From positions 39,446-103,445 of the IMG/VR virus record IMGVR_UViG_2974549561_000001: DNA of 64,000 nt. One strand, 5' to 3'. Position numbers: made by a program. Shown here piece by piece: positions 15,301-18,300 of the stretch (its first letter is position 1; each line of letters begins with the position of its first letter). Source of the DNA: a virus (Duplodnaviria; Heunggongvirae; Uroviricota; Caudoviricetes).

Positions 15301-18300
15301 TCACCAATGCCATTTTCGGTACCAATGAGTTCCGGGCGTCAGATTATGAGATCACCACAGCACAGTTTGGCACCATTGGCATTTACAGCAATAAAGCCGA
15401 GATCAAGCAGGCAATGGACTCAGCAAGCGCGCGCATCGCAGCAGAACGGGAAGCCAATCTGAATCATGCAGTCGCCGCGCTGACTCAATCGTGGGTAACA
15501 GCAATCAGGGAGGCCGCCACCACAGGGAAAATCACACCTGCAATAGCGGATGTCGTAAACGACGGCTCTAAATTTATGGATGCCTATCAAATGGATGCGG
15601 TGAAGTTGCCATCAGCCTATGGTCAACTCAGCTATCGCATGACCTACAACCTGGTATCAATGTTTTCCGACCTTGCCATCCTTGGGCTGGTGGATCTTAA
15701 CGAGGTTACGCCGGAATTGCTCAGCATGCGCAAGAATCATGTGGAGATATTGCAGAGAATTAACACGGTTCTTGCTGGGCGCACCGATGAAGAGAAACAG
15801 GCCGACGCTGATCGGATAAACCTAGCCCTTGGCAACATCACGGAGGAAGAGATTGCCGCCAGAAACGAGAAACAAGAAGAGTTATCATCAATACAGGGTG
15901 ATGCCACCAGCATAGCTCAGTCTCTTGGTCTGAATTATCGCGTATCCACCGCCGACCTGAAGATGATGTACGCACCAAAATTCGCCGCTGGCGAGGTATT
16001 TGGGCTTCAGGAAGCCTCAGGCATGAAAGGCGTTCTTTTCCGTGCGAAAGACGCAATCAAGGCGAAATTCGGCGCTCGCTGGCTGCCAGCGAAGGCGAAG
16101 AACAGCGATTTCCCGGGTAACTGGTGGATTATCGAGACAAAACACAACGTGGCGGACGTTCTGGCCGTCATCCAACAATACGCATAACAGGAGCGCCCGG
16201 TTCGCCGGGCGTCGCATAATATGGCCACACTATCTGATACAATAAAACCGAATAAAACATATCTTGAGGCGGTACTCCGTACAGCGTTGTTAGGAAAGAC
16301 AGAAGACGAATACGTTGATTTCTTCCTGTCAGGGCTACGCGGGCGATTACTGAAAAATCCCCGCCTGTACCGCAGCTATGGTCCATACTGGCCGGAAATT
16401 AAAAAATTATTACTGGAGCGCGGTTATGGTAATTTCGGTCGTCTCGTTGACCGTGACGTTCGCAAAATTTACCGTTATGACCGCCCGGCGCTAACACTCA
16501 TAGCCGCGACGCTCTACAGCCAGGAGCGTTTTGATAATGGTCAGATATACTCAGCCTGGCATTTACTGCCAGTGCCTGAAGAAGTTGACGACCAGGACTA
16601 TGAGTTTGAGTCTTACGATTTGGAAGTTGAAGCCTTGGCACAGGCTGGAGAGAAAACTTGAAAAAGCGATACTACACAGTAAAGCATGGGACGCTACGAG
16701 CATTACAAGAGTTTGCTGATAAGCATAACGTTGAGGTGCGCAGGGAAGGGGGAAGTAAAGCTCTGCGCATGTACCGTCCGGACGGGAAATGGCGTACGGT
16801 CGTCGATTTCAAAACTAACAGCGTTCCCCAGGGCGTCCGCGACCGGGCATTCGAAGAATGGGAGCAGATCATCATAGATAACGCATTGCTCCTGAATGCT
16901 GATTAAATCTTTGGCTATGCCTGGCTAAGCCAGGCATAGGAATTTACACAGTATCAATGTGTCTGCTAAGGAATCTCCCGAACTGATTTGTTGACCCAAA
17001 ATAGTTAGGATAAGCCTTTTTAAGAGATTTAATGTTGTTAGTGGCAAGCAGCACCGCAATTAATACTTCAGGATCCGCATCATCCTTATTAAGTTCCTGG
17101 AGGGCTTGTTCCGATTCTTTTTTCCTAAAAGGTTTCACAGAAACAAGAAACTTTCCAGTATCCTTGCCATTTTTTGTTATGGCGTTTCTCATCCTCACCA
17201 AAAAGAATCCATTATGGTTTTTGGGCAGGCTTTTCTTTAGGTTTGCATCTGATGTCAGCTTCATTGCAAATGTATATGTACTTAATTTTGAGCGAACAGA
17301 TAAAGCCTCCTCCAATGTTTTAAGCTCTGTTTGATAATTTTTGATGGTTTCATCATCAAGAATACAGGCACCTTCATCATGAGCAACTAGGCATCCAGAA
17401 AGATAAAAAAATCTTCTCCACTCAGGGTGACCTTCATTAGAAGTTTTCAGCTTAATATTTTCAAGTGTATCTATTATCTCCAGACTTGTTGCCCAAGCAT
17501 GTTGGAGTTCTGTTCTTAGTTGTACTTCGATTTTAGTTTTACTCCACGGATTGTTACCGTTTTCTTCATCAAAACAACTATATGCAAGGTGAATGCCACT
17601 ATATCCGCTTGGCTTTGGAGTTAAATAGTCATATTCCTTTAAGATTTTATGCTTGGAGCGACTTTTAACTAGTCGGTCTTTTAGTTTCTTTAGTTGTTCG
17701 ATGTTTCTAACTATAGCTCTACATCCGCCAATATCCTGCATTCTAGTAAGGGCTATTGCATTATTTGTTGCGCCGCCGTCAAGACTTGGACGCTCCAGTT
17801 TATCAATTATTGTGCTAAGTCTTTTTAGGCGTCTTGCAACAATAATCTTATTCTCTTTATCAACTTTTTTTGCAGCCCTATCAAGATGATTTTTCATTAG
17901 CATCAATGGATATAAATGAAGCTCGCGGAAATTTTGAATCATTTTAATTGCTTCTTCTCGCTCTGCGCCCTCACAACCATGTCTAATTTTTCTGGCTGCT
18001 TTTTCTATTTGAGATTTCGAATATTTAAGCTCGCATTTTTGGCTTTGATATACTTCACTGCCCATTACTAACATCCAGTTCAAATGATTAATGTGTTGTT
18101 ACATATAATAACAAATCAAGCTAGAAATCAATGGGTATGAAAATGAAACATACCCATAATGTTACCTAACGTAACTATTATAAATAGTTCTGTTTACCTG
18201 TTAATTCTCCTTGCGGCACTTGTTTTTGCGTTAGTGTTTGAGTTCCGCGAATTATGTTAATCAGGGGACTTAGTAATGATGGTTCCTGATGGGCCTCAAC

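Follow-up and report, generated by a model that had tools for sequence, protein, structure and literature searches.

capRel(SJ46), a fused toxSAS toxin-antitoxin gene, as res-mod-region cargo of a P1-like phage-plasmid

In a window of 64,000 nucleotides, the whole stretch of viral DNA analysed here, the gene at positions 16944..18065 on the minus strand is almost certainly capRel(SJ46) (probability roughly 0.97). On this reading it encodes a fused toxSAS toxin-antitoxin that serves as an abortive-infection sensor, is carried as cargo of the res-mod region by an SJ46-type P1-like phage-plasmid, and acts by the published mechanism. The exact protein is already known: two PDB crystal structures represent it, and its mechanism and triggers are covered by two papers in Nature. 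Among all lines of evidence considered in this study, we found none that contradicted the identification.

The 373-aa product was searched against the PDB using phmmer and proved identical to 7ZTB_A at 373 of 373 residues (E = 1.6e-250), which a direct string comparison confirmed, and identical to the 372-aa chain 9ERV_A over its full length (372/372). The first of these entries is CapRel(SJ46) in its unbound, open state (PMC11578894) and is cited in the report of the 2.3 Å crystal structure by Zhang et al. (Nature 2022, PMC9712102); the second is the complex of CapRel(SJ46) with Gp54 of Bas11, as given in the data availability statement of the Nature 2024 paper (PMC11578894). In near-identical plasmids, the RefSeq annotation contains this 373-aa protein as WP_001749390.1, and earlier work has already reported it at 100% identity from SJ46 and from prophages of E. 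coli. An earlier note on this DNA had proposed a CapRel-type fused toxSAS, which is supported by the full-length identity to both structure entries; it had also pointed to a CapRel from the Salmonella P1-like prophage SJ46, and the two entries confirm this source together with the numbering of the catalytic tyrosine as Y155. The alignment to published CapRel sequences that it called for identifies the copy as the described member (373/373 with 7ZTB_A). Its further suggestion, that a differing copy would bring a new sensor with a new trigger specificity, falls away, as no residue difference to 7ZTB_A was found. As the two sequences do not differ, the mechanism published for CapRel(SJ46) can be carried over to the capRel gene analysed here.

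The reading frame that had been placed at 16944-18083 is real. The ORF listing shows 16944..18083 on the minus strand as an ORF of 379 aa opening at TTG 18083, with further in-frame ATGs at 18074 and 18065. We assign the coding sequence to 16944..18065 (minus strand; 373 aa plus stop), which uses the third of these starts in agreement with RefSeq WP_001749390.1 and PDB 7ZTB and gives a protein beginning with MGSEVY. The 5' in-frame extension covers 18066..18083 (minus strand) and would lengthen the product to 379 aa from TTG 18083 or to 376 aa from ATG 18074. A clear Shine-Dalgarno sequence is absent before all three candidate starts (TTG 18083, ATG 18074 and ATG 18065).

Regular-expression searches on the translation located every RelA/SpoT motif at the ORF position previously given for it: RRLKRLSTIIDKLER at residues 84-98, following the pattern R84-x2-K-x2-S-x4-K-x2-R98, DIGGCR at residues 117-122, GYSGIH at 160-165, EVQLRT at 186-191 and HAWA at 195-198. 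The tyrosine of GYSGIH, ORF residue 161, becomes Y155 when counted from the third start, just as the earlier note had worked out; this catalytic G-loop tyrosine is encoded by the TAT codon at 17601..17603 (minus strand). In the same numbering, the arginines of interest are R79 and R116. A YPNY sequence, likewise found by regular expression at ORF residues 358-361 (17001..17012, minus strand), corresponds to the YXXY neutralisation motif with Y352 and Y355, which would plug the adenine site when the protein is closed. R79, R116, Y155 and Y352/Y355 all coincide exactly with the published positions. The profile search that had been proposed returned a match to Pfam RelA_SpoT (PF04607) at residues 85-199 (E = 3.1e-13), whose 50.4 bits exceed the gathering cutoff of 27 bits, and the PADLOC defence candidate PDC-S33 matches the product from end to end (E = 5.1e-87). 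Together, the motif set, the Pfam and PADLOC scores and the low-GC island in which the gene lies are far beyond chance.

The RelA_SpoT domain is also what capRel would have in common with a housekeeping small alarmone synthetase (SAS) of the RelP/RelQ/YwaC kind, producing (p)ppGpp for the stringent response of the host, and the product shows weak similarity to the SAS structures 2BE3, 6EWZ and 5DEC (E = 1e-7 to 2e-4). However, these matches are limited to the catalytic core of ~120 residues, whereas the identity with CapRel(SJ46) extends over the full length. Furthermore, the gene is low-GC cargo of a phage-plasmid with no chromosomal location in the E. coli set, and the biochemistry described in PMC9712102 is that of an enzyme which pyrophosphorylates tRNA and arrests translation, and not that of alarmone signalling. 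A stand-alone SAS of ~210-250 aa is recognised by close SAS homology and a chromosomal location, and capRel has neither. We therefore regard a housekeeping role as extremely improbable and retain the identification as capRel(SJ46).

C-terminal to the catalytic core, the protein carries an extra regulatory region of ~170 aa. The two-part organisation suggested by the earlier note holds, but its split at about residues 210/211 does not, as the experimental division separates a toxin (1-272) from an antitoxin/sensor (273-373). Residues 1-272 (17250..18065, minus strand) represent the toxSYNTH toxin fragment, a RelA/SpoT-type pyrophosphokinase, plus linker helices, as delimited by the Pfam match, the motifs and the published toxic construct capRel(1-272) (PMC9712102); this part includes the G-loop as well as R79 and R116, which coordinate ATP/adenine. 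Residues 273-373 (16947..17249, minus strand) represent the antitoxin/sensor fragment and equal the published rescuing construct capRel(273-373); they consist of part of anchor-1 (helix alpha-9), the pseudo-zinc-finger domain (pseudo-ZFD) and the C-terminal helical anchor (PMC9712102, PMC11578894). According to PMC9712102, a helical linker/anchor lies between the catalytic core and the pseudo-ZFD.

The genomic placement of capRel is equally well defined. The gene is contained in a low-GC cassette of 1,270 bp (16908..18177) that replaces the res-mod locus of P1 (P1 3469-9748, including IS5) between lxc and mat, with a GC content of 0.36-0.37 in the capRel island versus ~0.50 in the flanks. BLAST against the annotated P1 reference showed that P1 homology ends at window position 16907 (P1 9749), one base past the lxc stop codon, and restarts at 18178 (P1 3468), exactly at the mat stop codon. 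Thus, 1,270 bp are found here in place of 6,280 bp in P1 (res, mod and an IS5), and these breakpoints, flanked by lxc and mat, bear out the proposed location in the P1 res-mod slot. On the lxc side, window 13000-16907 is 98.5% identical to P1 13656-9749 (darB, ulx, lxc); on the mat side, window 18178-19036 is 93.8% identical to P1 3468-2609 (mat, end of ref). Of the two conserved neighbours, lxc (modulator of C1; 16658..16906, plus strand; 98% identical to P1) is convergent with capRel, and mat (maturation control; 18178..18846, minus strand, annotated by RefSeq as 18178..18819; 93.8% identical to P1) lies upstream of it in the same direction, opposite to that of res/mod in P1. Within these flanks, we also observed an amber codon in darB and variability in the 3' part of mat. 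PMC9603915 refers to the res-mod interval of P1-like phage-plasmids as "highly variable region 1" and notes its low GC content. OP279344 was considered as a natural alternative occupant of this slot and rejected, as it represents an engineered P1 from which res and mod have been removed and is uninformative in this respect.

The composition of the cassette also speaks to the single-gene architecture. Besides the coding sequence (1,122 nt including the stop codon), the 1,270 bp comprise 112 nt upstream of ATG 18065 and 36 nt downstream of the stop. The ORF listing revealed no separate small antitoxin ORF adjoining capRel within the cassette, in line with what the earlier note had observed. The lxc and mat stop codons delimit a cassette that the coding sequence fills, leaving no space for an independent antitoxin gene. 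The majority of toxSAS systems are nevertheless bicistronic (PMC9712102), and several short ORFs of 44-100 aa overlap capRel, as would be expected if an antitoxin gene of a two-gene toxSAS system had been overlooked. Yet these short ORFs are antisense and lie inside the coding sequence, the neighbours on both sides are the conserved P1 genes, and RefSeq annotates nothing besides the 373-aa capRel in the lxc-mat interval. Moreover, the experiments described in PMC9712102 found residues 1-272 to be toxic alone and residues 273-373 to rescue this toxicity in trans, whereas the full-length protein was non-toxic on its own. Based on this, the probability of an overlooked antitoxin gene is negligible, and capRel is best described as a single-gene, fused toxin-antitoxin.

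To judge from its sequence, the window as a whole is an SJ46-type P1-like phage-plasmid. It aligns with NZ_CP031191.1, a P1-like plasmid of Salmonella Indiana (103,441 bp), at 99.974% identity over 49,910 bp in one block, with 11 mismatches and 2 gaps, and the same 373-aa protein is annotated on this plasmid. SJ46 itself has been described as a P1-like element of 103,445 bp with an 8.6-kb Tn1721-derived blaCTX-M-27 region between mat and ref (PMC5241659). In the window, a blaCTX-M-27 transposon insertion of 8,632 bp (19037-27668) is likewise located between mat and ref and contains a Tn3-family transposase, a resolvase, IS903B and blaCTX-M-27. This resistance transposon clips the end of ref. 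We base the assignment to SJ46 on the identity of the protein, on the near-identical plasmids from Salmonella and on how SJ46 has been described (PMC5241659), and the window probably represents either SJ46 (KU760857) or a 99.97%-identical sibling plasmid.

At an identity of at least 99.8%, the cassette is present in 21 plasmids of PLSDB, which come from Escherichia, Salmonella and Klebsiella. Among 5,426 complete E. coli genomes, 14 carry it as well, and all of the E. coli occurrences (15/15) are located on plasmids. The near identity across plasmids and genomes would fit recent spread, selection, or a combination of the two. When a phage collection was searched with 5.1 kb around the gene, vB_EcoM-673R5 was the sole phage record covering the cassette, showing 84.6% identity with 21 gap openings over 3 kb. 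Its capRel homologue is annotated as two CDSs and was considered as a natural split toxin/antitoxin pair; this was rejected, since darB and mat are fragmented in the same record, which is probably an indel-rich assembly.

Next to the gene, a sigma-70-like candidate promoter (TTAACA-16 nt-TATAAT; 18204..18177, minus strand) was identified by scanning, with 11 of 12 positions matching the consensus. It overlaps the last codons and the stop of mat and lies ~112-140 nt upstream of the ATG. Overall, the promoter and terminator counts of the scan were close to the shuffle expectation, with promoter-like sites not enriched (7 found versus 5.3 expected from shuffles), and the single 11/12 site is therefore kept as a lead only. 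This site may drive capRel, and the finding that 100-200 bp of native upstream DNA are enough for expression of capRel(SJ46) (PMC9712102) is consistent with it. Between mat and capRel, the scan detected no terminator-like site. On the other side of the gene, a hairpin with a perfect 11-bp stem (16911..16937) is situated between the convergent lxc and capRel genes; its folding energy of -21 kcal/mol (z = -4.5) was reached by none of 200 shuffled sequences, and no T-run follows it on the capRel strand. The hairpin is likely a bidirectional terminator, a function that we infer from the sequence, or a transcript-stabilising element. An Rfam scan of positions 16000-19200 (E ≤ 1) gave no match, and hence no known RNA element in the 5' leader or in the intergenic hairpin.

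These signals are relevant to the question whether capRel, although intact, could be silent in its native phage-plasmid and transcribed by read-through from mat only, or initiated at another start, giving a product of 376 or 379 aa that behaves differently. Such a scenario would fit the lack of a strong Shine-Dalgarno sequence at any of the starts, a promoter that is a consensus match of a non-enriched type, and the lack of a terminator-like site between capRel and the co-directional mat upstream of it. Against this, a synthetic fragment with 100-200 bp of native upstream DNA conferred defence in E. coli (PMC9712102), the best promoter-like site lies inside precisely this stretch, and the cassette has been kept at an identity of at least 99.8% in the 21 plasmids and 14 E. 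coli genomes mentioned above. We thus consider a silent or altered capRel very unlikely and an active capRel(SJ46) the better description.

Transcription of mat in P1 depends on two promoters, one repressed by C1 and the other a late promoter. Because capRel is co-directional with mat, no terminator-like site separates the two genes and the promoter-like site lies over the mat stop, differential expression of capRel is possible. That the sensor is in fact differentially expressed in the lysogenic versus the lytic phase of the phage-plasmid, and that it may respond to further triggers, for example from T-even phages, is a speculative and rather unlikely extension of these data. In the published defence assays, pBR322 or the HK022 att site carried the gene, and not the native phage-plasmid (PMC9712102); expressed from the phage-plasmid itself, capRel would be expected to behave alike.

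According to the proposed mechanism, the resting protein's C-terminal pseudo-ZFD would fold back on the N-terminal RelA/SpoT-type toxSYNTH domain, and the YXXY motif (Y352/Y355) would be inserted between R79 and R116, blocking the ATP site. During infection, a newly made phage protein, the known triggers being the major capsid protein of SECphi27-like phages and the small protein Gp54 of Bas11, would bind the pseudo-ZFD and the anchor helices and thereby hold the enzyme open. The open enzyme would then move pyrophosphate from ATP onto tRNAs, so that translation stops and the infection is aborted. Within the present analysis, this proposal is based on the identical sequence, on the motifs, on the genomic location of the gene and on a cassette that contains no separate antitoxin gene.

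Experimental support for the individual steps comes from work on the identical protein. In E. coli, CapRel(SJ46) was reported to defend against T2, T4, T6, RB69 and SECphi27 via abortive infection, and this defence was lost upon the substitution Y155A (PMC9712102). The crystal structure represents the open state; Y352A and Y355A are among the substitutions made at the interface, and interface-disrupting substitutions rendered the protein toxic (PMC9712102). The major capsid protein Gp57 of SECphi27 binds the pseudo-ZFD directly, as documented by ITC, co-IP and HDX, is both required for activation and sufficient for it, and stimulates the pyrophosphorylation of tRNA and the arrest of translation by CapRel(SJ46) (PMC9712102). 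The related major capsid proteins of Bas5 and Bas8 also act as triggers (PMC9712102, PMC11578894), and Gp54 of Bas11 has been described as a second, unrelated trigger that binds an overlapping surface including helix alpha-9, residues 270-279 (PMC11578894). The tests proposed in the earlier note, from the profile search and the alignment to published CapRels through N-terminal toxicity, C-terminal rescue and mutation of the tyrosine to the phage panel with its escape mutants, have either been run here or already been published for this exact sequence.

Compared with known systems, the gene in the window agrees with CapRel(SJ46) in all 373 of 373 residues, in its catalytic and neutralisation motifs, in its single-gene organisation and in its P1-like phage-plasmid host element, and no difference was detected at the protein level. 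[quoted passage not shown] PhRel/ATphRel of the mycobacteriophage Phrann and the bicistronic CapRel/ATcapRel have a homologous toxin domain and an antitoxin homologous to capRel(SJ46)'s C-terminal region, and they are likewise prophage-borne and exclude other phages (PMC9712102); in contrast to the one polypeptide of capRel(SJ46), their toxin and antitoxin are encoded by separate genes. The GRel toxSAS Pag1B of PANGU (bioRxiv 10.64898/2026.04.06.716658) resembles capRel in its toxSYNTH fold, its G-loop tyrosine and its role as an abortive anti-phage effector, but is unrelated at the family level, makes pppGpp, requires the separate activator Pag1A and is without a cis antitoxin. Finally, the EcoP1I type III res-mod system of P1 shares with capRel the locus between mat and lxc and the nature of prophage defence cargo, whereas its proteins and mechanism are unrelated (DNA restriction versus abortive infection via tRNA modification). 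SJ46-type elements carry the 1.27-kb capRel cassette precisely in place of this 6.3-kb locus of opposite orientation, and the exchange of res-mod for capRel shows by example that P1-like phage-plasmids have an exchangeable defence slot in their mat-lxc interval.

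The slot between lxc and mat, which in the window is filled by the gene of the fused toxin-antitoxin CapRel(SJ46), is also occupied by a capRel homologue in phage vB_EcoM-673R5 (ON470615.2, 3468-4567), where the annotation gives it as two separate CDSs (180 and 182 aa). We considered whether this arrangement represents a naturally split toxin and antitoxin, but rejected this reading, since the locus reaches only 84.6% identity with the window, the alignment opens 21 gaps over 3 kb, and this phage has fragmented darB and mat genes as well. Most likely, the two-CDS homologue reflects an indel-rich assembly. 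Different, uncharacterised cargo was found at the same position in two further P1-like elements, namely a 316-aa hypothetical protein (gp7) in JL22 (ON018986.2, 2969-3919) and about 1.2 kb with no annotated genes in MH422554.1 (2908-4097). The slot of RCS47 appears to be almost empty.

Homology with the window restarts only at about 18296-18310, and not at the mat stop codon (18178), in some P1-like phages, so that certain lineages appear to have exchanged the C-terminal ~40 codons of mat along with the cargo of the slot. This 3′ part of mat (window 18178-18310) is variable among P1-like phages, and identity to P1 amounts to 93.8% for mat overall, compared to 98.5% on the darB-ulx-lxc side.

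At the opposite edge of the slot, the convergent genes lxc and capRel are separated by a perfect hairpin placed within the cassette (window 16911-16937), with an 11-bp stem and a 3-nt loop (CTATGCCTGGC TTA GCCAGGCATAG). Its folding energy was calculated as -21 kcal/mol (z = -4.5). A search of this hairpin against Rfam gave no matches, and no T-run accompanies it on the capRel strand.

The darB frame (window 9411-16187, + strand; ~2,258 codons), assigned to defence against restriction, contains an in-frame amber codon (TAG) at 13914-13916 on the + strand, where P1 has TTG (Leu), dividing it into 1,501 and 756 codons. Because an identical TAG is present in NZ_CP031191.1, a plasmid of Salmonella Indiana for which no darB CDS is listed in the gene table (this table leaves out pseudogenes), the phage-plasmid lineage of the window may lack full-length DarB, barring suppression of the stop.

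Beyond mat, the window carries an insertion of 8,632 bp (19037-27668) comprising a Tn1721/TnAs1-type transposase (19068-22034), a resolvase, IS903B and blaCTX-M-27. In terms of the P1 backbone, the element is inserted inside the final ~30 nt of ref and thus not, in the strict sense, between mat and ref; it is flanked on either side by P1 positions 2609-2615, and ref is annotated with 582 nt versus 561 nt in P1. The insertion matches the 8.6-kb region described for the Salmonella P1-like phage-plasmid SJ46 (PMC5241659).
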